This document shows positions 1,024-22,029 of a stretch of 32,000 nt of DNA, piece by piece. Both the position numbers and the translations under genes were made by a program. Origin of the DNA: Acaryochloris marina MBIC11017 (lineage in GTDB: Bacteria; Cyanobacteriota; Cyanobacteriia; Thermosynechococcales; Thermosynechococcaceae). The notes beneath the pieces are model-generated. The model did not search any database, had not been told where the DNA came from, and saw only the letters and a program-made list of their open reading frames with translations. The DNA is taken from contig NC_009925.1 in the NCBI RefSeq assembly GCF_000018105.1, positions 2,160,001 to 2,192,000 of the forward strand, written 5' to 3'. Every line of letters starts with the position of its first letter. Position 1 is the first letter of the stretch.

Positions 1024-1140
1024 ATCCGCTAATTCACGTATTAGAATACAGTTGCAATCTGATTATCCTGATTGCTCTTGATATAGAGCAAATTCAAGAG
1101 ATTAATTGTTGGCTTTTCAAGGGTCGGCCAGGAGCAATGA

Positions 1141-4100
1141 GTGGCAGCTAATTTCCAATACGATGTTTTTCTCAGCCACAGTGCCAAGAATAAAGATGTG
1201 GTCAGGAAGATTGCAGAGCGGCTCAAATCTGCTGGGGTAAAAGTCTGGTTCGATGAGTGGAGCATTCGACCTGGAGATAGCATTCCAGCCAAAATTGAGG
1301 AAGGGTTAGAACAGTCCCGAGTGTTGGTACTGTGCATGTCTGCTGAGGCATTTGGGTCGGATTGGGCACAGTTGGAGAGTTATACCTTTCGGTTTAAAGA
1401 CCCACTAAACAAGGACCGTCGCTTTATTCCCCTCCGATTAGATGACGCCACTATCAGAGGATCACTGGCACAGTTTAGCTATATCGATTGGCGTAGGCAG
1501 GATAGCTCTGAAGCATATGGCAAACTGCTGACAGCTTGTCAACCTTATCAAGACGCTCCGCTACCAGACCCAAAACAACTCACTCAAGACGAATTTAAGT
1601 TAAAAATTCTATCGCTCGGACACACTGACGCCGTCTGGAGCGTGGCCTTCAGCGCCGACGGTCGCCGCGCCCTCTCCGGCTCCAATGACAACACCGTGCG
1701 CCTGTGGGACGTCGATACCGGACAATCCCTCAGGGTCATGGAAGGACACACTGACTCCGTCAATAGCGTGGCCTTCAGCGCCGACGGTCGCCGCGCCCTC
1801 TCCGGCTCCTCTGACAGAACCGTGCGCTTGTGGGACGTCGATACCGGACAATCCCTCCGAGTCATGGAAGGACACACTGACTCCGTCCAGAGCGTGGCCT
1901 TCAGCGCCGACGGTCGCCGCGCCCTCTCCGGCTCCTATGACAGAACCGTGCGCTTGTGGGACGTCGATACCGGACAATCCCTCCGAGTCATGGAAGGACA
2001 CACTGACTCCGTCCAGAGCGTGGCCTTCAGCGCCGACGGTCGCCGCGCCCTCTCCGGCTCCTCTGACAGAACCGTGCGCTTGTGGGACGTCGATACCGGA
2101 CAATCCCTCCGAGTCATGGAAGGACACACTGACTACGTCTGGAGCGTGGCCTTCAGCGCCGACGGTCACCGCGCCCTCTCCGGCTCTGATGACAACACCG
2201 TGCGCTTGTGGGACGTCGATACCGGACAATCCCTCCGAGTCATGGAAGGACACACTGACTCCGTCTGGAGCGTGGCCTTCAGCGCCGACGGTCGCCGCGC
2301 CCTCTCCGGCTCCTATGACCGCACCGTGCGCTTGTGGGACGTCGATACCGGACAATCCCTCAGGGTCATGGAAGGACACACTTCCTACGTCAATAGCGTG
2401 GCCTTCAGCGCCGACGGTCGCCGCGCCCTCTCCGGCTCCCAGGACCGCACCGTGCGCCTGTGGGACGTCGATACCGGACAAACTCTCAGGGTGATGGAAG
2501 GACACACTGAATACCTCCAGAGCGTGGTCTTCAGCGCCGACGGTCACTACGCCCTCTCCGGCTCCTATGACAGAACCGTGCGCTTGTGGGACGTCGATAC
2601 CGGACAATCCCTCAGGGTCATGGAAGGACACACTTCCTACGTCTTGAGCGTGGCCTTCAGCGCCGACGGTCGCCGCGCCCTCTCCGGCTCCTCTGACAGA
2701 ACCGTGCGCTTGTGGGACGTCGATACCGGACAATCCCTCCGAGTCATGGAAGGACACACTGACGCCGTCTGGAGCGTGGCCTTCAGCGCCGACGGTCGCC
2801 GCGCCCTCTCCGGCTCCTCTGACAGAACCGTGCGCTTGTGGGACGTCGATACCGGACAATCCCTCCGAGTCATGGAAGGACACACTGACTCCGTCAATAG
2901 CGTGGCCTTCAGCGCCGACGGTCACCGCGCCCTCTCCGGCTCCTATGACAGAACCGTGCGCTTGTGGGACGTCGATACCGGACAATCCCTCAGGGTCATG
3001 GAAGGACACACTGACGCCGTCTGGAGCGTGGCCTTCAGCGCCGACGGTCGCCGCGCCCTCTCCGGCTCCAATGACAACACCGTGCGCCTGTGGGACGTCG
3101 ATACCGGACAAACTCTCAGGGTGATGGAAGGACACACTGAATACCTCCAGAGCGTGGTCTTCAGCGCCGACGGTCACTACGCCCTCTCCGGCTCCCAGGA
3201 CCGCACCGTGCGCCTGTGGGACGTGGATACCGGACAAACCCTCAGGGTCATGGAAGGACACACTGGCGAAGTCTGGAGCGTGGCCTTCAGCGCCGACGGT
3301 CGCCAATACTATTCTTCTGCATCAAATGGTGTCCTACGTTTATGGCCATACGGCGATGAAACCTTGCCAGTAGTCACCGATCAGGTCGAATATACAAACG
3401 CCAAAGTCTTATTTGTAGGCAACAGTGCAGCGGGCAAAACCGGGCTTTCCAACCGGCTGGCACTAGACGCCTATAAAGAGACTGATTCTACAGTCGGTGC
3501 CTGGGCGACGCAGTGGAAGCTTCCTGTTGAGTCAAACGACGGCGTAGAAAAGGAGATTTGGCTATGGGATTTTGGGGGACAGGCGGATCAGCGGCTAATT
3601 CACCAACTCTATATGGATCAGACTCAGGTAGCGGCTTTAGTCTTTGATCCACAGAAGCCAGAATTCCTGGAGGGACTACGAACCTGGGATCGGGATCTGA
3701 CAAGGGCCGCTACAGGCGACTTTAAAAAATTGCTCGTTGCCGGACGCATCGATGCCGGAGGTCTACGCAGTGTCAGTCGCCATCAGGTTGAAGAATTTGC
3801 CCAAGAATATGGATTTGAGGAATACATCGAAACGAGTGCCAAAGAGAACATCGGCTGTAAGGAATTAAAACAGGCAATCTGTCAGTTAATCGATTGGGAT
3901 AGCATCGCCAAACGGACAACACCTAAGCTTTTCAGAAGACTCAAACAAGAGATTGTCTCCCTCAAGGACGAAGGTCGCACATTGATGCGCTTCAACGAAC
4001 TGCGTGAGGCCCTAACCCTGCGTATGAGTGGGGAACGCTTTACTGACACAGAGCTAAAGACTGTTATTTCACTTCTCGCTGGTCCAGGTGTAATGTGGGA

Positions 4101-5370
4101 ACTCGGATTTGGCTCCTGGGTTCTGCTAGCGCCTGAACTAATCAATGCCTATGCTCAAGCCGTTATTCGCACAATTCAAGAGGATGAACGCGAGTTGGGC
4201 TGTATCACAGAAGCCTGTGTCCTGGCTGGTCAGCTCAGCTATCCCAACGATCTCCAGCGGCTACCGGAAGAGGAAGAACGTATTCTGTTGCTGGCGATGC
4301 ACCGACTCCTGGTTGAAAATAGCCTCTGCCTGAGCGAACCTACGGAAACCGGAACCCTTTTGATCTTCCCTAGCTATGCTCGCCGCGAGCGTCCCGATCT
4401 GATTAAACACCCCTCCGTTATGGTCAGTTATGAGTTTGCAGGGTTTCTTGATGACATCTATGCGACTCTTATTGTTCGCCTGCACCGAATCAGCCCTTTT
4501 GAAACTGAAGAACTCTGGAAAGACGCCGCAGATTTCAAAAGCAGGACTGGCTATAAGTTGGGGGTTAAACTCTCCCGCAAAGCAGCAGGAAAAGCAGAAT
4601 TGCTGGTTTACTTCGACCCAAAGCTGTCGATTGGCGAGCGGATGATCTTTAGCCAATATGTTCAGGAGCATCTATTCCGCAAAGTCAAAGATCGTGATCA
4701 GGTCAAACGGCTGCGCCACTGGGTCTGTGGCAACTGTGGCGAACCTGTCGAGAATCGCAACCGGGCTATGCAACGTCTACACGACCAAGGGAAAGAAGCA
4801 AAAATCATCTGCGTTAACTGCGAGACATACGTGCAGCTCTGGGACGAAATGGAAGCAACGTTTGCAGACCCCGACATCCTTAGTCGAGTCAGAACCTTAG
4901 AAGCAGAAGCCCAACGTGAGCTGGATAACGAGAGCAAAGAACGAGCCCTTGTTGGTGATGTGATTTCCACGGTTGCGCTAGCAGGCCAAATTTCCCGTGA
5001 ATTCTCCGTTAGCGACCACGGCCTCGATATGGAGATTGAATTTAAGAATGACGAAGGTGAGGCAACGGGCCAGCGCCTTTACCTACAGCTCAAATCAGGC
5101 GACTCGTATCTGTCTGAAAGAAAACGTGATGGAGTGGAAATATTCAAAATTTCCAAGCAACGACATGTTGAATATTGGATAAATCAGAAATATCCAGTTA
5201 TGTTAGTCATTCGTAATTCGGAAGGCGAAATTCGCTGGATGGAAATTAGCGAATATCTTCAACAGAAAACCCAAAATGGTAAAAAACAGATTCGACAGAT
5301 CGAATTTGTGGGTGAACGCTTTGACGTGATGAGTGTCAGACATTGGCGGGAGAAAGCTCTAAAGCCGTAA
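1141..5370 (+). CDS. Multidomain TIR / WD40 x14 / Roc GTPase / COR / zinc-ribbon / DUF4365 nuclease-like protein (ROCO-type, NLR-like candidate immune or cell-death protein), 1409 aa
   Basis: GTG start at 1141, preceded by GGAG at 1131-1134.
- TIR (about 1159-1545): YDVFLSHS..VKVWFDEWSIRPGD..VLVLCMS..SDWAQLE.
- WD40: 14 units of 42 aa, GHTxxVxSVAFSADGRRALSGSxDxTVRLWDVDTGQSLRVME (1618-3381).
- Roc GTPase: P-loop GNSAAGKT (3418-3441), DFGGQ (3568-3582), AGRID as an NKxD-like G4, and ETSAKE as G5 (3829-3846).
- COR-like region (about 3900-4680): VLLAPELI..VSYEFAGFLDDIYATLIVRLHRI.
- Zinc ribbon: CGNC..CVNC (4726-4821).
- DUF4365-like: SDHGLDMEIEFK..LYLQLKSG (about 4930-5300). Confidence 0.9.
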   Translation: MAANFQYDVFLSHSAKNKDVVRKIAERLKSAGVKVWFDEWSIRPGDSIPAKIEEGLEQSRVLVLCMSAEAFGSDWAQLESYTFRFKDPLNKDRRFIPLRLDDATIRGSLAQFSYIDWRRQDSSEAYGKLLTACQPYQDAPLPDPKQLTQDEFKLKILSLGHTDAVWSVAFSADGRRALSGSNDNTVRLWDVDTGQSLRVMEGHTDSVNSVAFSADGRRALSGSSDRTVRLWDVDTGQSLRVMEGHTDSVQSVAFSADGRRALSGSYDRTVRLWDVDTGQSLRVMEGHTDSVQSVAFSADGRRALSGSSDRTVRLWDVDTGQSLRVMEGHTDYVWSVAFSADGHRALSGSDDNTVRLWDVDTGQSLRVMEGHTDSVWSVAFSADGRRALSGSYDRTVRLWDVDTGQSLRVMEGHTSYVNSVAFSADGRRALSGSQDRTVRLWDVDTGQTLRVMEGHTEYLQSVVFSADGHYALSGSYDRTVRLWDVDTGQSLRVMEGHTSYVLSVAFSADGRRALSGSSDRTVRLWDVDTGQSLRVMEGHTDAVWSVAFSADGRRALSGSSDRTVRLWDVDTGQSLRVMEGHTDSVNSVAFSADGHRALSGSYDRTVRLWDVDTGQSLRVMEGHTDAVWSVAFSADGRRALSGSNDNTVRLWDVDTGQTLRVMEGHTEYLQSVVFSADGHYALSGSQDRTVRLWDVDTGQTLRVMEGHTGEVWSVAFSADGRQYYSSASNGVLRLWPYGDETLPVVTDQVEYTNAKVLFVGNSAAGKTGLSNRLALDAYKETDSTVGAWATQWKLPVESNDGVEKEIWLWDFGGQADQRLIHQLYMDQTQVAALVFDPQKPEFLEGLRTWDRDLTRAATGDFKKLLVAGRIDAGGLRSVSRHQVEEFAQEYGFEEYIETSAKENIGCKELKQAICQLIDWDSIAKRTTPKLFRRLKQEIVSLKDEGRTLMRFNELREALTLRMSGERFTDTELKTVISLLAGPGVMWELGFGSWVLLAPELINAYAQAVIRTIQEDERELGCITEACVLAGQLSYPNDLQRLPEEEERILLLAMHRLLVENSLCLSEPTETGTLLIFPSYARRERPDLIKHPSVMVSYEFAGFLDDIYATLIVRLHRISPFETEELWKDAADFKSRTGYKLGVKLSRKAAGKAELLVYFDPKLSIGERMIFSQYVQEHLFRKVKDRDQVKRLRHWVCGNCGEPVENRNRAMQRLHDQGKEAKIICVNCETYVQLWDEMEATFADPDILSRVRTLEAEAQRELDNESKERALVGDVISTVALAGQISREFSVSDHGLDMEIEFKNDEGEATGQRLYLQLKSGDSYLSERKRDGVEIFKISKQRHVEYWINQKYPVMLVIRNSEGEIRWMEISEYLQQKTQNGKKQIRQIEFVGERFDVMSVRHWREKALKP
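1618..3381 (+). repeat. Tandem array of 14 x 126-bp coding repeats (WD40 blades) inside the 1141-5370 CDS
   Basis: The GGACACACT (Gly-His-Thr) unit start recurs at 1618, 1744, 1870 and so on to 3256, an exact 126-nt period. Units 1-13 are near-identical at nucleotide level. Unit 14 degenerates after codon 17. Exact long duplicates exist, for example 1618-1725 = 3004-3111 and about 2448-2565 = 3078-3195. Confidence 0.97.
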
Positions 5371-5373
5371 TCT

Positions 5374-6567
5374 ATGCAATCTGAACAGTCCCCTTACCTC
5401 AATAAAGTTGGCATTATCGGTGCAGGCCCCGCAGGACTCGCCACAGCCATCGCCCTCAGAAAGCAAGGCATAGAAGTCCATATCTATGAACGCGCCACAG
5501 CCTTGCGGCCCATCGGCGCAGGCGTCACCCTCTCCCCCAACGGCATCAGAAGCCTAGCCGCCATTGATACCGATATTGTTCAACAACTACAACAGCAAGG
5601 CTCCCAACTCAATCGCTTCCGCATCAGAACCGCTAAAGGATGGCCCCTCCTCAACCAACCCGTCAAAGATGACGATTACGATCAGCCCTTTCTAGCCATT
5701 CGCTGGTTTAGCCTCCAAGAAATAATGAGGGCCAAACTCCCCCCAGAAATTCTTCACCTCAATCATCAACTCACTCACTTTGAGCAAACCCATCAAAACG
5801 TCAATCTGTCCTTTGCCAACGGTGAAATGGCAACCGTTGATCTACTGATTGGCGCAGACGGCATTCGTTCCATCGTCCGCAAACAACTCTTTGACCTAGA
5901 AGACCCAGCTTATGGTGGTTGGATGACCTGGCGCGGCGTCCAAAAATATCAGCATCCCTTGCTTCCCCCTCACCACACCACGATTTTTGCCAAACGAGGC
6001 AAAAGTTTAATCCTCCTAGATAACGGCCAAGGCTATGTCTCATGGGCATTAGAGATACCCATGCCCACCATTCATCGATCCCAACATCCCGAAGCAGCAA
6101 AAACCCGAGTCCTACAGGAACTCTCCAAATGGCATCCTACCTTACAAGAACTGGTGAACCTCACAGATGCAGACACCATCGTTGAAAGACCCGTATGCGA
6201 GCCTATGATCTTGCCTCAATGGAGCAACGGCAGAGTCACCCTCGTCGGGGATGCCGCCCATCCAATGGCACCCTTCTTAGGCCAAGGCACTAACACCACC
6301 TTCGAAGACGTGTGGGCCTTATCCACCTATTTATCTCAACAGGGCAATCTAGCAAACGCTTTGAAAAACTACGAAAACAACCGTATTGAGCGCGCCCATA
6401 CTATTCAATATCGGACAATGTACTCCGCTGCTCAAATGCGCAACCCTTTCCTACGACCTCGATGGTTCAAAACATCCTTAGGAAAAGTACCAGACCAGGC
6501 CAAAGTCAGCGAAAAGGCATTTTCAGATTGGCTCTACCAGTATGAGCTAACAACTGAATCAACTTAA
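5374..6567 (+). CDS. FAD-dependent aromatic-ring monooxygenase/hydroxylase family protein (UbiH / salicylate hydroxylase / zeaxanthin-epoxidase-like), 397 aa
   Basis: Rossmann dinucleotide motif GIIGAGPAGLATA, GADGIRSIVR motif, and GDAAHPMAPFLGQGTNTTFEDV FAD-ribityl motif. The ATG lies 3 nt after the stop of the preceding gene. Confidence 0.85.
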   Translation: MQSEQSPYLNKVGIIGAGPAGLATAIALRKQGIEVHIYERATALRPIGAGVTLSPNGIRSLAAIDTDIVQQLQQQGSQLNRFRIRTAKGWPLLNQPVKDDDYDQPFLAIRWFSLQEIMRAKLPPEILHLNHQLTHFEQTHQNVNLSFANGEMATVDLLIGADGIRSIVRKQLFDLEDPAYGGWMTWRGVQKYQHPLLPPHHTTIFAKRGKSLILLDNGQGYVSWALEIPMPTIHRSQHPEAAKTRVLQELSKWHPTLQELVNLTDADTIVERPVCEPMILPQWSNGRVTLVGDAAHPMAPFLGQGTNTTFEDVWALSTYLSQQGNLANALKNYENNRIERAHTIQYRTMYSAAQMRNPFLRPRWFKTSLGKVPDQAKVSEKAFSDWLYQYELTTEST

Positions 6568-17836: not shown

Positions 17837-20533
17837 TTAGAAAAAGTCTTTCGCTTTCTGGACCGCAAGGGTGAGAGCAAAAATAGCAAAGATAAAGATG
17901 CCGAAGATCCCTAAATGTTGATTGACATTGACTTTGAACGTATTGCTGAATTGCTCATTAATGCCGTTGATTAAACCTTCAGCGGCACTAATGGCACCAT
18001 TACGTTTTAAATTCCACTCCGTTAGGTCTTCTTGATACTTTTCAAGATCTTTGTTGAATTTATCAAAGGCATCTGGAGATTGAGCATCAGCCCCTGTGGG
18101 TTGTTTAGGCTGTTTGGGCTTCGGTTGATCGACAATCGGGTCATATTCTTGCTCGATGCCGGGAAACTCGCATTTTTTAAAAACGCTCTCTCCCATGCAA
18201 TCACAGCTTTTTTTCCGATCCGCTCCGATTTCATCGTATTCTTTGACCTTGCCGGAGGTCACATCTTGCCAGCAAGGATCCTCTGCTACATCAATACCGG
18301 CTTCCGACAGCGTGGAGAGGGCTTCAAACGGCCACTTCGTCAGGGATAACTGGTTGAGCACCTTTCCTGGCGGGCCAAACGTCTCAATAGGTAAAACGCC
18401 ACCCCCAAAGATAATTTGAGGAATCAGAAAAACCAACACTAAAATAGGAGCCACACTCTGATTAGGAGCCGCTGCCGATCCTAAAAGTCCCAGCAGCATC
18501 CCCGCAATCACCGACAGGGTAATGGTTAGATACATCCCCAGGAGAATGCCAGGTTCACTCGGTAAGTCCTTGACCGCAATGATTTTAAACAGCAAGAAAA
18601 CACCGCCCTGGTAGAGAGCTAGCAAAACACTCACCCATACCTTGGAAAAGACATAGGGGGCAATCTGTAAGCCAATAATTCTTTCTCGACGATAAATATC
18701 GACTTCTTTGACGATTTCGCGCATCGTCGGTAGCGCACCCACCATCACAGCAAACAGAATAGTGGTGAACAGCATCGTTAACGCCAAACTGGCATCACCA
18801 TCTTTCGTACTGAATAGGGGCTGGCTCCAGGTCACCAGATCTAGCATTCCTAAGATCGGTGCGACAGCCAGCATCAGCAAAAGGCTAACGCGATCGCGCA
18901 TTAGAATCGCAATATTCCGCTTCGATAGAATGAGGAATTGCTTCCAACTCGAAATAGTTTTGACCTGAGCGCCTGGCAATTGCTGCTTCAGGCGTTTCGC
19001 CCCTCGTTGAGTTCCTGATGCCCCTAAGGATTGTTGGCGTTGCGCCACATATTTTTGATATAAGGGCGATTGCTGATAACGCTGTTGCCATTCCTGCGGG
19101 GATAATTCATGTTCAACCTTGCTGTAAATTTGGTTGAACTTTTCTACGCCAAAGTAGCCAGGCGCTTCTTTCGGCGGACCATAGTAGGCTAAATACCCCC
19201 CTCGGGCCATAAACACCACCTGATCACACATCGTCACATTGTCGGTAGCATGGGTGATCAGCAAAATGGTGCGGCCTTGATCCGCTAACTCCCGCAACAG
19301 CTGCATCAGTTCAGCTTCGGTGCCAGGATCGAGGCCCGACGTGGCTTCATCTAAATAAAATAGGCTGGGCTTGGTCAGGAGTTCTACCCCAATGGACACC
19401 CGCTTAATTTGGCCGCCACTGAGGGACTTAATGGGGACAGAGCGCCGATGTTCCAGTCCTAAGTCTTTCAGGACTTCGCTCACCCGCATTTTTCGTTCTG
19501 CCCGGGTTGTATCATTGGGCATGCGCAATTGAGCCGCGAAGTCCAACGCTTGTTCAACGGTTAATTCCATATGGACAATGTCCCGCTGGGGAACATAGCC
19601 AATTTGATTGCGATAGGCATTGAAATTACGGTATAAATCCGTGCCGTTGACCAAAACATTGCCACTCGTCGCCGGCCGGAACCCGTTTAAAGCATCCAGT
19701 AAGGTTGATTTCCCTCCACCACTGACCCCGGCAATCACCACAAATTCCCGGGCCTGAATTGATAAGGAGATATCTTGCAGCAGGTTGAGGTCCTTATTGA
19801 TTTGCTTATTTAGACCAATGGCATCAATCCGCAGATTTCCCTCTTCATTGCTATGGAGTAGGGTCTCATTCAGATTAAAGACCAGATTGGTTGGACCCAC
19901 GCGAATCGAATCCCCGACTCGGAGAGGGTGATGGCCAACAATTTGCTTGCCATTTAGGAAGGTGCCATTGGTGGAGTTGAGGTCGAGAACAATATAAGAT
20001 CCGTCTTGCTTTTTGATTTGAGCATGGAAGCGGGAGACCGACGGATGGTTAATCTCCATGTCATTGAGCGGATCGCGACCTAAGGTGAAGGTATCACGCC
20101 CTTTTAAGTCTAAATGCCGAGATTGCGTGGGAGGAGATCCCACGCCAGCTTCAGGCACACCTGAAATCGTCGTTTTCTGGGCTGAGACAGGGACAGGAGC
20201 CTGGGCAGGAATCGGAGCAGGTGCTGCGATCGCAAGAATGATTTCATAGTTACCAATCCGAACTTGATCACCCGGCACCAGGGATCGAGGGGTATGAGGC
20301 GCTAGCTGAATACCATTAACGTAGGTACCATCAGAGCTATTAAGATCCGTGACGACATAAGCATTGCCAGAATATTTAAATTGGGCATGATGCCTAGAGA
20401 CTGACAAATCATCACTTAAAACGAGCTGATTATCTGGGGAGCGACCTAAATTGACTTCAGTTTGCGTCAGCGGAAATTCTCTAACGAGAGCTTGGTCTTT
20501 GCGGATATCAAGTTTGGCAGCAGGATTAGGCAT
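17837..20533 (-). CDS. FHA-FHA-ABC transporter fusion (two forkhead-associated domains, ABC ATPase and ABC-2/ABCG-type membrane domain)
   Basis: FHA1 VNLGRSPDNQLVL..SRHHAQF..DLNSSDGTYVNG. FHA2 FTLGRDPLNDMEI..SRFHAQI..DLNSTNGTFLNG. Walker A GVSGGGKST, signature LSGGQIKR, Walker B LFYLDEATSGLD. Six predicted TM segments follow, with a long loop before the last. The ORF-track start at 20572 is TTG; the first ATG (MPNPAAKLDI) is at 20533. Confidence 0.88.
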   Translation of the reverse strand: MPNPAAKLDIRKDQALVREFPLTQTEVNLGRSPDNQLVLSDDLSVSRHHAQFKYSGNAYVVTDLNSSDGTYVNGIQLAPHTPRSLVPGDQVRIGNYEIILAIAAPAPIPAQAPVPVSAQKTTISGVPEAGVGSPPTQSRHLDLKGRDTFTLGRDPLNDMEINHPSVSRFHAQIKKQDGSYIVLDLNSTNGTFLNGKQIVGHHPLRVGDSIRVGPTNLVFNLNETLLHSNEEGNLRIDAIGLNKQINKDLNLLQDISLSIQAREFVVIAGVSGGGKSTLLDALNGFRPATSGNVLVNGTDLYRNFNAYRNQIGYVPQRDIVHMELTVEQALDFAAQLRMPNDTTRAERKMRVSEVLKDLGLEHRRSVPIKSLSGGQIKRVSIGVELLTKPSLFYLDEATSGLDPGTEAELMQLLRELADQGRTILLITHATDNVTMCDQVVFMARGGYLAYYGPPKEAPGYFGVEKFNQIYSKVEHELSPQEWQQRYQQSPLYQKYVAQRQQSLGASGTQRGAKRLKQQLPGAQVKTISSWKQFLILSKRNIAILMRDRVSLLLMLAVAPILGMLDLVTWSQPLFSTKDGDASLALTMLFTTILFAVMVGALPTMREIVKEVDIYRRERIIGLQIAPYVFSKVWVSVLLALYQGGVFLLFKIIAVKDLPSEPGILLGMYLTITLSVIAGMLLGLLGSAAAPNQSVAPILVLVFLIPQIIFGGGVLPIETFGPPGKVLNQLSLTKWPFEALSTLSEAGIDVAEDPCWQDVTSGKVKEYDEIGADRKKSCDCMGESVFKKCEFPGIEQEYDPIVDQPKPKQPKQPTGADAQSPDAFDKFNKDLEKYQEDLTEWNLKRNGAISAAEGLINGINEQFSNTFKVNVNQHLGIFGIFIFAIFALTLAVQKAKDFF
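18890..18897. repeat. HIP1 palindrome GCGATCGC
   Basis: Exact octamer read directly from the sequence. Confidence 0.9.
20226..20233. repeat. HIP1 palindrome GCGATCGC
   Basis: Exact octamer read directly from the sequence. Confidence 0.9.
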
Positions 20534-20697
20534 TGTCAGAGTCGAGACAGCATAAATGAAATGGGCTGGCAATGGGTCGATTGTGGGCGAGGGGGCTGGG
20601 ACTACGCGTCAGGTTCCCTTTCGATCACATTCGAACATTGATCAATATTAATCCCATTAAAGTTCGAATCCTTCAAGATGGATTTATTCCGCAACAC

Positions 20698-22029
20698 TCA
20701 GGAGCGTAATCGTTGCCGAAATTCGGTCGCTTGCTCTGCAACTGGAATTTGCTGCGATAGCAATTTGACTAGCTCTTGTTCAGTCACACCAGGATACTGG
20801 GTCAGGGTGCGCTGATAAACAATCGCTGAGATAGGGCCAATAAACTCTGCCAAAACATTCTGGCACTTTTGTCCAAATTCTGGCCGAATAACCGGTTGTG
20901 AGCTCGGAACAATGGGTACTGTTGCTGACTCTGGAGCAGATGATACTGGACCTGTGGAAGAAGGCGTAGGAGGTGGCTCGATCGGCTGGCTTGTCGGCTG
21001 AGCAAAGGAAGCAGGGCCAGCTGGCTGACTCGTAGACTGCCCACTAGCAGGAATACTAGAGCCAGATGAATTAGGCTGAACAGAATTGACCGCCTGAGTG
21101 GGTTCCATCCCCATCGTTGAGTTTAAAACGGAAGCAGGGATCGATTGGCCACTACTTTCCAACACAACAAGCTGCTGCAGGACAACCTCAGCATTTGCGG
21201 GACGCTGACTCGCCACTGGCGCCATTAACCAATCTAAAAGATTGGCAAATCGTGGAGAGATATTAATAGCGGTTGAGCGCCACTCAAACTTATCCGTACT
21301 CCCATCGTAAAACTGACTGAGTTCTTTACCCGTCACCAAATAGACAAAGGTTCGACCTAGCGCAAAAAAGTCAGACTGGGGAACCGCCTGCCCATGAATT
21401 TGCTCGCGGGGGGTATAAAAGGAGGAGACCACCCGGGTTCCTCCTTGTTGGGTATTGGTCACATTCGTCACGGATCGAGCTGTACCAAAGTCAACCAAAC
21501 AGATGTTGCCATTGGCTTTCAGCATAATATTAGAGGGCTTAATGTCCCGATGCAGCACCTGCTGCTGATGGACAACCTGGAGAATTTTTAGGACTTGTTT
21601 CAGCCATTGGACCGCCAGTTTTTCATCAATGGGATGTCCCCGTTGTCGTAAATAATCTTGTAAGTCCAACCCCACGATTTTTTCCATGACCAGACAATGG
21701 AGGGGCTCTTTCCAATTGCGAGGATAAAACGTGAAGTAAGAGTTGGGCTCAACTTTAGGAATGCCAGGATGATTGAGTTGGCTCAGCAAATTAGCCTCAC
21801 GCTGAAACAACTCGACATGCTTGGGATAATTGTCAGTCAGTATTTTGAGGATCTTAGGGCTACTCTCTAAATCACTCACTTCATAGGTTTTGCCAAATCC
21901 GCCTTGACCTCGTAGACTAATGACTCGATAACGTCCTTCTAGCAACAGTTCTGAACCACAACTCGCACAGAACAGATGGTCATCTGAGCTTTGTGGATCG
22001 GCACAACTAGGATTGATGCAGAGACTCAT
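20698..22029 (-). CDS. Hanks-type Ser/Thr protein kinase with N-terminal zinc ribbon, Pro/Ser-rich linker and small C-terminal domain, 443 aa
   Basis: CINPSC..CASCG zinc ribbon. Glycine loop GQGGFGKTY, catalytic loop HRDIKPSNIML, DFGTAR, and a Thr-rich activation loop ending TPRE. It lies upstream of, and is co-oriented with, the FHA-ABC gene. Confidence 0.9.
   Translation of the reverse strand: MSLCINPSCADPQSSDDHLFCASCGSELLLEGRYRVISLRGQGGFGKTYEVSDLESSPKILKILTDNYPKHVELFQREANLLSQLNHPGIPKVEPNSYFTFYPRNWKEPLHCLVMEKIVGLDLQDYLRQRGHPIDEKLAVQWLKQVLKILQVVHQQQVLHRDIKPSNIMLKANGNICLVDFGTARSVTNVTNTQQGGTRVVSSFYTPREQIHGQAVPQSDFFALGRTFVYLVTGKELSQFYDGSTDKFEWRSTAINISPRFANLLDWLMAPVASQRPANAEVVLQQLVVLESSGQSIPASVLNSTMGMEPTQAVNSVQPNSSGSSIPASGQSTSQPAGPASFAQPTSQPIEPPPTPSSTGPVSSAPESATVPIVPSSQPVIRPEFGQKCQNVLAEFIGPISAIVYQRTLTQYPGVTEQELVKLLSQQIPVAEQATEFRQRLRS

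Follow-up and report, generated by a model that had tools for sequence, protein, structure and literature searches.

For some 20 years prokaryotic Roco proteins have been used as structural models of LRRK2, the kinase of Parkinson's disease, and to our knowledge their own biology is essentially unknown. The gene AM1_2164 of Acaryochloris marina MBIC11017 raises the question of whether such a protein could work as an immune receptor. It lies in a stretch of 32,000 nucleotides (NC_009925.1, positions 2,160,001 to 2,192,000 of the forward strand) that we call the window and in which its positions are counted. Its product joins an N-terminal TIR domain, fourteen WD40 repeats, a Roc-type GTPase with a COR domain, a zinc ribbon and a C-terminal DUF4365 nuclease domain of the DREN type. 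We think it likely that AM1_2164 is a single-protein, NLR-like innate-immune or cell-death device in which a ROCO switch stands in place of the STAND ATPase. The family points to a conflict system because effectors are swapped on its WD40-Roc-COR-zinc ribbon core, no neighbouring gene family recurs widely beside it, its spread is patchy and some genomes carry two copies. Since only 10 of the 42 positions of the WD40 unit vary in their amino acid, the differences between two strains fall on them and independent lineages behave alike, the sensor appears to evolve like an immune receptor. An independent comparative-genomic study likewise predicted counter-invader systems among Roc-COR proteins that pair a repeat sensor with a TIR, caspase or restriction endonuclease (REase) effector (PMC8195603). 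The candidate immune or cell-death role that the original prediction had put forward for this gene gains indirect support from the abortive-infection effectors, the effector swapping and the diversification of the repeats at the putative ligand-binding face.

Domains of the AM1_2164 protein

The features of the gene are as follows.

1130..1143, + strand: Shine-Dalgarno-like AGGAG (1130-1134) and GTG start codon (1141-1143), read from the sequence
1141..5370, + strand: whole gene AM1_2164, encoding the 1409-aa TIR-WD40x14-Roc-COR-Zn-DREN protein
1165..1530, + strand: TIR domain, aa 9-130, with Glu E79 (Pfam TIR_2, E=1.5e-30)
1618..3381, + strand: WD40 array, aa 160-747, 14 units of 42 aa / 126 bp (Pfam WD40 x14, Tandem Repeats Finder, unit analysis)
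3403..3885, + strand: Roc-type small GTPase, aa 755-915 (Pfam Ras/Roc, TIGR00231)
3886..4710, + strand: COR domain, aa 916-1190 (AlphaFold2 and Foldseek)
4720..4830, + strand: Cys4 zinc ribbon, C1196, C1199, C1224 and C1227 (cysteine conservation)
4870..4980, + strand: long linker helix from zinc ribbon to nuclease, aa ~1244-1280 (AlphaFold2 secondary structure, H496-532 of the model)
4984..5355, + strand: DUF4365 / DREN PD-(D/E)xK nuclease, aa 1282-1405 (Pfam DUF4365, E=3.7e-25)

The gene is one uninterrupted open reading frame (ORF) of 1409 codons that begins with GTG; the AGGAG sits 6 nt 5' of this codon, and the database protein, identical in length, begins at the same codon. The product (M1) is an exact match to ABW27178.1 / WP_012162657.1, encoded on the 6.5-Mb chromosome of A. 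marina MBIC11017, and the allele in a second complete A. marina genome, BDM81931.1, also has 1409 aa and differs at 2 residues. The exact match and the equal-length allele rule out an assembly chimera or several genes read as one, so that AM1_2164 is neither a mis-assembly nor a multi-gene fusion and the single reading frame originally described stands. The TIR domain, the fourteen blades, the Roc GTPase, the zinc ribbon and the DUF4365 domain that had been named from the DNA were likewise all recovered, each by the evidence given here; the COR domain had a more divided outcome.

The nearest solved relatives of the TIR domain are all bacterial, namely 7uwg, PdTIR (3h16) and 8g83, the last deposited as 'NAD(+) hydrolase AbTIR' (E-values from 3e-15 to 2e-14). 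E79 aligns with the Glu of 7uwg, the best-matching solved bacterial TIR, which we take to be the catalytic residue, and it is kept in 183 of 190 family members (96%). The domain has the TIR fold with the catalytic Glu and is a predicted NADase. The only NTPase in AM1_2164 is a small Ras/Roc GTPase (Ras E=6e-22, 78.3 bits; Roc PF08477 E=4e-17, 62.9 bits against a cut-off of 27; TIGR00231 2.6e-17, 63 bits). Its motifs G1 to G5 are intact, comprising the P-loop G760-T767, T784 of switch I, D810xxGQ814, a G4 variant GRxD at 868-871 (D871) and SAK at 899-901, and all five are invariant or near-invariant among 50 homologues.

Roughly 365 residues between the GTPase and DUF4365 have no significant Pfam match, and it is here that the original prediction had placed the COR domain. 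At the level of sequence profiles that assignment failed: a Pfam search at E<=1 did not find COR in AM1_2164, phmmer with the C-terminal half against the PDB returned Rab-type G domains only and no COR, Roco or LRRK2, and a hidden Markov model (HMM) of the middle region, made from 22 family sequences, found no Roco or LRRK2 chain among the PDB sequences. At the level of fold it held. An AlphaFold2 model of aa 749-1409, built on a 50-sequence alignment of two subfamilies with 38-83% identity, has a mean predicted local distance difference test score (pLDDT) of 85.4 and a predicted TM-score (pTM) of 0.81. Past the G domain it runs through two winged-helix-like modules, which make up COR-A (about aa 929-1078), and an alpha/beta module, COR-B (about aa 1092-1181), followed by a beta-rich zinc-ribbon region, a 37-residue helix and the nuclease. 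When this model was compared with the PDB by Foldseek, the top match was LRRK2 (8fo9_A, E=9.7e-19, 563 columns); LRRK1 (8e05_A, E=6.7e-18) and C. tepidum Roc-COR (3dpu_A, E=1.4e-17, 518 columns, TM(target) 0.64) were found as well, and M. barkeri Roco2 (4wnr) was also among the best. Plain Rab proteins were aligned in the same search over about 166 columns only, at E ~1e-11.

The G domain is not the source of the Roco and LRRK2 scores, since the COR domain modelled without Roc (aa 916-1190, pLDDT 86.7) still matches the COR of Roco proteins. Its best match was 3dpt_A, the isolated COR of C. tepidum Roco (E=2.2e-8, 270/275 columns), ranks 1-16 were all C. tepidum Roco or LRRK2, and unrelated winged-helix or KA1-like folds appeared only from E>=2e-3. 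The TM-scores of COR alone are modest, about 0.4, which would fit a different hinge angle between COR-A and COR-B. The fold searches with Roc plus COR and with COR alone thus class AM1_2164 as a ROCO protein with a genuine, highly divergent Roc-COR tandem.

The four cysteines of the zinc ribbon are invariant in 50 of 50 homologues and are kept in the effector-swapped relatives as well; the corresponding Pfam matches, to DZR and DUF7479, are weak. At the C-terminus, DUF4365 (PF14280) scores 89 bits against a cut-off of 24.3, and the DREN motif consists of D1292, G-L-D1296, E1298 and Q1316-L-K1318, each at least 90% conserved in the family. A search of the PDB with the single DREN sequence gave nothing relevant, and the family HMM found the solved DUF4365 protein 9qbq_A (E=5.8e-4), with GID...E...QLK aligned to GtD...E...QvK. 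The residues proposed earlier for mutation, E79, K766/T767, D1292 and K1318, were correctly numbered, but the Asp that aligns with 9qbq_A is D1296 and not D1292. The nuclease appears degenerate in two relatives, reading as frameshifted in L064 (11707..12087) and without its QxK in L065 (11630..12010, where the sequence reads ITLNRG), which suggests occasional decay or inactivation of DREN.

Variation within the WD40 array

Pfam recognizes WD40 in 14 stretches (E=2e-171), and Tandem Repeats Finder describes a 126-bp tandem array of 13.4 copies with 91% matches. Units 1-13 share 84-99% DNA identity, and the divergent unit 14 (about 56%) is presumably the blade that closes the propeller. The 14 blades would presumably form two 7-bladed propellers that act as the sensor. 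Amino-acid variation among units 1-13 is limited to positions 4-7, 10, 16, 17, 23, 25 and 37 of the 42-residue unit, where changes are often made by replacement of several nucleotides of a codon. The remaining 32 positions carry synonymous differences only, which indicates purifying selection. The two A. marina strains differ solely at position 7 of unit 3 (Q->W, CAG->TGG) and position 5 of unit 5 (Y->S), both of them variable positions; two changes would both hit the 130 hypervariable residues with a chance of about 0.0085. One of the two is a 3-nt codon swap, which is suggestive of unit-to-unit conversion.

How far this behavior extends to relatives can be seen from the self-identity of the repeats in 252 family proteins, which has a median of 0.36 and reaches at least 0.65 in about 10%, spread over several lineages; A. 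marina is the extreme of the family with 0.93 at an offset of 42 aa. In four independent arrays, positions 3-5, 7 and 23-25 were again the most variable. These positions presumably correspond to the D-A loop, the start of strand A and the B-C turn, and so to the top face of the propeller in the textbook WD40 topology. Highly repetitive (HR) prokaryotic WD40 proteins with variable hotspots are a general phenomenon (Hu et al. 2017, PMC5587647), and AM1_2164, with an internal identity of at least 0.7 and diversity at hotspots, falls within the HR WD40 definition of that study.

The array also stands out in composition, having a GC content of 64%, and of 77% at third codon positions (GC3), in 1618..3255, against 48% for both GC and GC3 in the rest of the gene. 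Over 46 family genes the GC3 excess followed repeat identity in a weak trend only (Spearman 0.34, p=0.02), with A. marina an extreme outlier, and we therefore do not favor GC-biased conversion as the cause of the anomaly; a foreign cassette is another conceivable source. A repeat pool common to other genes was likewise rejected: blastn of the array against 72,556 plasmids, which should include those of A. marina itself, gave one match only, actinobacterial and 64% identical. That match is a 'TIR domain-containing protein' gene on a plasmid of Mycobacterium sp. JS623 (NC_019957.1, 114959..115933), which may be a high-GC member of the AM1_2164 family. On the opposite strand, a 565-aa ORF (1609..3306, - strand) spans the array; rather than being a gene, it most likely arises from the periodicity of the GC-rich repeat, which leaves that frame free of stops.

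The family, its variants and their surroundings

A search with the C-terminal 661 aa returned at least 1503 proteins, a second search started from a 33%-identical relative gave 1932 further matches, and the COR-zinc ribbon region by itself matches 1751 clusters at 50% identity. The best 120 matches are 62-83% identical along the whole query, most of them being about 1115-1155 aa long with TIR_2, WD40, Roc/Ras and DUF4365. Among the best 150, the TIR-WD40-Roc-COR-Zn-DREN arrangement is kept together down to about 31% identity, and two size classes can be distinguished, one with a single propeller (about 1110-1150 aa) and one with two (about 1370-1430 aa). AM1_2164 is an ordinary two-propeller member of this large family, and the order effector-sensor-switch-effector, which had been called unusual, is fixed in a family that numbers thousands of proteins. 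Forms of about 700 aa with Roc-COR-Zn-DREN only account for about 15% among the matches listed. One of them, the 688-aa P0039 of a Pyrinomonadaceae (L001, 4737..10067), is found 3' of an IS21 IstB gene and 1.4 kb in which no gene was called, and may be a truncated copy that lost its TIR and WD40 parts.

Relatives are encoded in at least 451 species-representative genomes from more than 10 phyla, including Cyanobacteria, Acidobacteriota, Planctomycetota, Verrucomicrobiota, Armatimonadota, Bacteroidota, Proteobacteria, Nitrospirota, Chloroflexota, Actinobacteriota and several candidate phyla; most of these genomes are metagenome-assembled genomes (MAGs). The family is distributed patchily, and identity across phyla is 62-69%. 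Two copies are present in some genomes, as in a Thermoanaerobaculaceae (L044 and L046, OY970330.1) and a Blastocatellia MAG (L073 and L078, DAOLKO01).

It is in the more distant relatives that the effector changes. With tblastn against plasmids we found three, all from Nostocales, that have the WD40-Roc-COR-Zn core but lack DREN. In Calothrix NIES-4101 (BAZ36750.1; L087, 2567..6016) the C-terminus is occupied by a TIR_2 domain (2.8e-24) and the gene adjoins a phage-type integrase; in Nostoc sp. C057 (WP_256874761.1; L085, 3011..7342) it carries a metallophosphoesterase and CHAT, with a NACHT gene following it; and in N. flagelliforme (L086, 2987..8182) metallophosphoesterase and CHAT are joined by a fused NACHT. 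Some members that keep DREN, represented by P0124, P0126, P0215 and P0235, have gained modules: HEAT plus an AAA_21/AAA_15 ATPase (AbiEii/OLD-like) past DREN, a response-regulator receiver at the N-terminus (P0215), AAA_22 at the C-terminus or AAA_35 at the N-terminus. Kaur et al. take the exchange of effectors on a constant core as a criterion for conflict systems (PMC7159879).

The surroundings of the relatives argue for a self-sufficient unit. When the 1026 neighbour ORFs of 80 loci were clustered all against all, no family turned up in more than 5 of the loci, so that the unit is a single gene and a multi-gene system with conserved partners is ruled out. Individual loci vary in character: L003 is full of toxin-antitoxin pairs, L002 has a PIN gene pair amid mostly housekeeping genes, and L004 is housekeeping. 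Around AM1_2164 itself, a scan for promoters and terminators gave nothing above chance. An FAD-dependent monooxygenase gene (5374..6567, + strand) starts 3 nt past the AM1_2164 stop with no terminator-like site between, and the two may be co-transcribed; the monooxygenase was not found beside homologues elsewhere, and its link to AM1_2164 therefore looks incidental. Farther along, at 17837..22029 (- strand), a 911-aa FHA-FHA-ABC transporter fusion lies beside a 443-aa Ser/Thr protein kinase, which looks like a phospho-signalling pair with no relation to AM1_2164.

Proposed function and known systems

Roc-COR is a dimerising GTPase switch. What triggers AM1_2164, in which direction nucleotides control it, which oligomers it forms and what role it plays in the cell we infer along the following lines. 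At rest its nucleotide state would be an inactive one, and the protein would probably dimerise through COR-B, as C. tepidum Roco does, while TIR and DREN are kept apart. A trigger, most likely a protein from a phage or a mobile element, would then dock on the top faces of the two propellers, with specificity provided by about five hypervariable positions per blade. Roc-COR would relay this binding, by GTP loading or a change of conformation, into higher-order self-association, and the clustering would create composite NADase sites from the TIR domains and a tetramer from DREN. NAD+ would then be consumed and DNA and RNA cut indiscriminately, and the cell would be killed or arrested ahead of the spread of the invader; GTP hydrolysis would return the switch or set its threshold. 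The precedents come from short prokaryotic Argonaute (pAgo) systems. The DREN of SPARDA is an indiscriminate DNase/RNase that leads to cell death or dormancy (10.1101/2023.06.08.544223). Isolated DREN is monomeric and inactive, and becomes active as a tetramer inside target-induced filaments (PMC12205087; 10.1101/2025.04.08.647717). In SPARTA, TIR tetramers form composite NADase sites (10.1101/2025.04.08.647717). By analogy, both effectors of AM1_2164 may be switched on by proximity.

Several observations weigh against an anti-invader role. As the original prediction had cautioned, the gene is not in a defence island: its neighbours in the window, among them the uvrA-like ABC protein gene, the FAD monooxygenase and psbA noted then, together with HIT, purD, SSB, gidA, transporters and a Ser/Thr kinase, are housekeeping chromosomal genes. 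The 148 nearest neighbours in 54 other genomes, annotated with Pfam and PADLOC, are mostly housekeeping too, a count that has no genome baseline for enrichment, with isolated toxin-antitoxin or defence matches, such as those to DpdF, BrxH, PsyrT, an SpbK-like protein and candidate systems. Mobility is not evident, given that no relatives were found on IMG/VR viral contigs and very few, the three distant ones, on plasmids. The Roc-COR-DREN half is conserved unusually strongly for a defence gene. No system model of PADLOC-DB v2 covers AM1_2164; the check that had been proposed returned matches to single domains of unrelated systems, namely TIR models (PDC-S66 and, weakly, ThsB), pAgo-associated REase models on DUF4365 (2.4e-10) and WD40. 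The literature that we searched holds no experimental work on AM1_2164 or on any bacterial Roco in defence, in agreement with the original statement that no such protein had been characterized. The top-face position of the variable residues is a prediction from textbook topology rather than from coordinates, we infer oligomerisation, nucleotide dependence and ligand binding by WD40 alike, and the TIR domain could make a signalling nucleotide instead of depleting NAD+. A fuller version of the model, in which the family is a Roc-COR-switched bacterial pattern-recognition receptor whose array diversifies by gene conversion, captures phage proteins and fires TIR and DREN together, we hold only tentatively, as plausible and somewhat short of probable.

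The same TIR and DREN effectors could belong to a device aimed at something other than phage, either a stress suicide switch or an allorecognition receptor like HET-E/NWD, set off by endogenous damage signals or by what rivals deliver, such as toxins of type VI secretion (T6SS) or contact-dependent inhibition (CDI) systems and conjugative elements. The evidence from effectors and switch is equal for this idea, and a chromosomal gene outside defence islands would suit it. Highly repetitive hotspot WD40 arrays are the signature of fungal allorecognition NLRs. Arrays of this kind have been described for prokaryotic WD40 proteins generally (PMC5587647), and Kaur et al. tie such systems to multicellular or social bacteria (PMC7159879). 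Against this, A. marina is unicellular, the family is common in many phyla without known multicellularity, an intracellular sensor requires non-self to have a route of entry, for which phages and mobile elements are the commonest, and effector swapping together with AbiEii/OLD-like additions is typical of anti-phage systems, so that we regard a non-phage device as unlikely but worth keeping in mind. The relic hypothesis fares far worse. It would have AM1_2164 as a decaying or selfish remnant with no present function in A. marina, its 14-blade array being the product of replication slippage in a GC-rich repeat, and it can draw on the contrast in GC3 within the gene and on the truncated or degenerate relatives (P0039 beside the IS21 gene, L064 and L065). 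A 4.2-kb ORF that is intact and of identical length in two strains, with all its catalytic and zinc-binding residues, purifying selection at 32 of 42 repeat positions and two-propeller versions that recur as a size class in the family make decay very improbable.

Some bacterial TIRs make signalling nucleotides, and AM1_2164 might accordingly be a non-lethal regulatory hub, with WD40 as scaffold, Roc-COR as gate, a TIR that either makes a messenger of the cyclic ADP-ribose type or serves for interactions only, and a DUF4365 module for DNA binding or site-specific processing. The Roc-COR fold does match eukaryotic signalling proteins such as LRRK2, the housekeeping context and the FAD monooxygenase that starts 3 nt downstream are compatible with such a role, and so are the high conservation across phyla and the receiver domain of P0215. 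Yet no messenger-receptor gene or other conserved partner is found nearby and the monooxygenase is not conserved beside homologues. The only characterised context of DREN is that of an indiscriminate collateral nuclease, and the alternatives that occupy the effector slot (TIR, CHAT protease, metallophosphoesterase, NACHT) are those of conflict systems; we consider the signalling hub improbable.

If the NLR-like immune reading is true, the family is a widespread single-gene defence system and the first tractable bacterial pattern-recognition receptor with a Roc-COR GTPase switch. It would also connect bacterial immunity with the LRRK/DAPK family in evolution: immune sensing would be an ancestral job of Roc-COR, reused later by animals in LRRK/DAPK proteins. 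The switch is coupled here to two easy predicted read-outs, NAD+ consumption and nucleic-acid degradation, so that the mechanics of Roc-COR could be read through simple NADase and nuclease assays. The family is thus an experimental entry point to whether bacterial Roco proteins are immune receptors as comparative genomics predicts, to a GTPase rather than a STAND ATPase gating effector oligomerisation, and to recognition diversity generated from near-identical WD40 repeats. The architecture is less novel than was originally claimed. The source data of PMC8195603 list about 14 'TIR+BetaPropeller+AP-GTPase' proteins of 1000-1236 aa without a COR or REase label, which are members of the AM1_2164 family given that NCBI names them DUF4365-containing, and the SPARDA preprint of Prostova et al. 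(10.1101/2023.06.08.544223, Fig. 5E legend) gives WP_012162657.1 as a DREN fusion with TIR, P-loop NTPase and WD40. New in the present analysis are the COR domain at fold level, the invariant zinc ribbon, the size and spread of the family, the effector-swapped relatives and the repeat diversification. With idea and architecture already predicted in the literature, the value of the family lies in testing rather than in discovery.

Among known systems, other bacterial TIR proteins (AbTir, PdTIR and TcpB; ThsB; the SPARTA TIR-APAZ protein) share the TIR_2 fold with AM1_2164, whose TIR is, unlike theirs, fused to its own sensor and switch. Membership in Thoeris was rejected, as ThsB models match the TIR domain only, and weakly, and no ThsA-type partner is conserved nearby. 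SPARDA, a short pAgo with DREN-APAZ, has the same DUF4365/DREN effector family with the D...E...QxK active site, but AM1_2164 has no Argonaute, APAZ or nucleic-acid guide, and presumably senses proteins through WD40, with the GTPase as gate. With no APAZ/PIWI in the protein, no conserved neighbour and a housekeeping window, it is not a SPARDA member. The fungal HET-E/NWD NLRs and the HR prokaryotic WD40 proteins resemble AM1_2164 in their near-identical repeats, predicted top-face hotspots and signs of exchange between units. In the fungal proteins NACHT takes the place of Roc-COR, and Hu et al. (PMC5587647) do not treat the AM1_2164 architecture. Roco proteins (C. tepidum Roco, M. barkeri Roco2, LRRK2/LRRK1) have, like AM1_2164, COR-A and COR-B directly past Roc, and LRRK2 also combines Roc-COR with a WD40 propeller. 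In contrast to these, the COR of AM1_2164 is similar below sequence detection, its G4 motif is GRxD rather than NKxD, it has no kinase or leucine-rich repeats (LRR), its WD40 array is N-terminal and not C-terminal to Roc, its outputs are a TIR and a nuclease, and a zinc ribbon is inserted past COR-B.

STAND and NLR-like defence proteins (Avs/AVAST, bNACHT, TIR-NLR) place a repeat sensor, an NTPase switch and an oligomerisation-activated effector in a single protein. AM1_2164 has this logic, but its switch is a Ras-superfamily GTPase with COR and not a STAND AAA+ ATPase, and its order is effector-sensor-switch-effector. Without a STAND AAA+ NTPase of the NACHT or NB-ARC type it was not assigned to the STAND-NLRs, and the PADLOC TIR-NLR model touches its TIR part only. 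The closest likeness is to the systems predicted by Kaur and colleagues, who noted AP-GTPase(Roc)+COR in cyanobacterial conflict systems (Kaur et al. 2020, PMC7159879) and later predicted prokaryotic counter-invader systems around it (Kaur, Iyer, Burroughs & Aravind 2021, eLife, PMC8195603, Fig. 6D), an assignment made as a prediction without experiments. In their prototype, LRR-Roc-COR precedes one of at least 24 different domains, TIR, caspase and trypsin among them, and their source data contain a separate A. marina paralogue with LRR+AP-GTPase+COR+TIR (PMC8195603). As in AM1_2164, a rapidly evolving repeat sensor, Roc-COR and a variable effector are put together in one polypeptide; effectors are drawn from the conflict repertoire (TIR, caspase, trypsin, REase, GT4 and others), and several paralogues per genome are possible. 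AM1_2164 differs from the prototype in its WD40 sensor, in having two effectors, an N-terminal TIR and a C-terminal DREN, and in the invariant zinc ribbon past COR. It nevertheless fits the class, with a sensor, AP-GTPase and COR and an effector that is displaced among relatives (DREN, TIR, Metallophos+CHAT, NACHT), and is best filed under the computationally predicted Roc-COR conflict systems, as a widespread family outside PADLOC.

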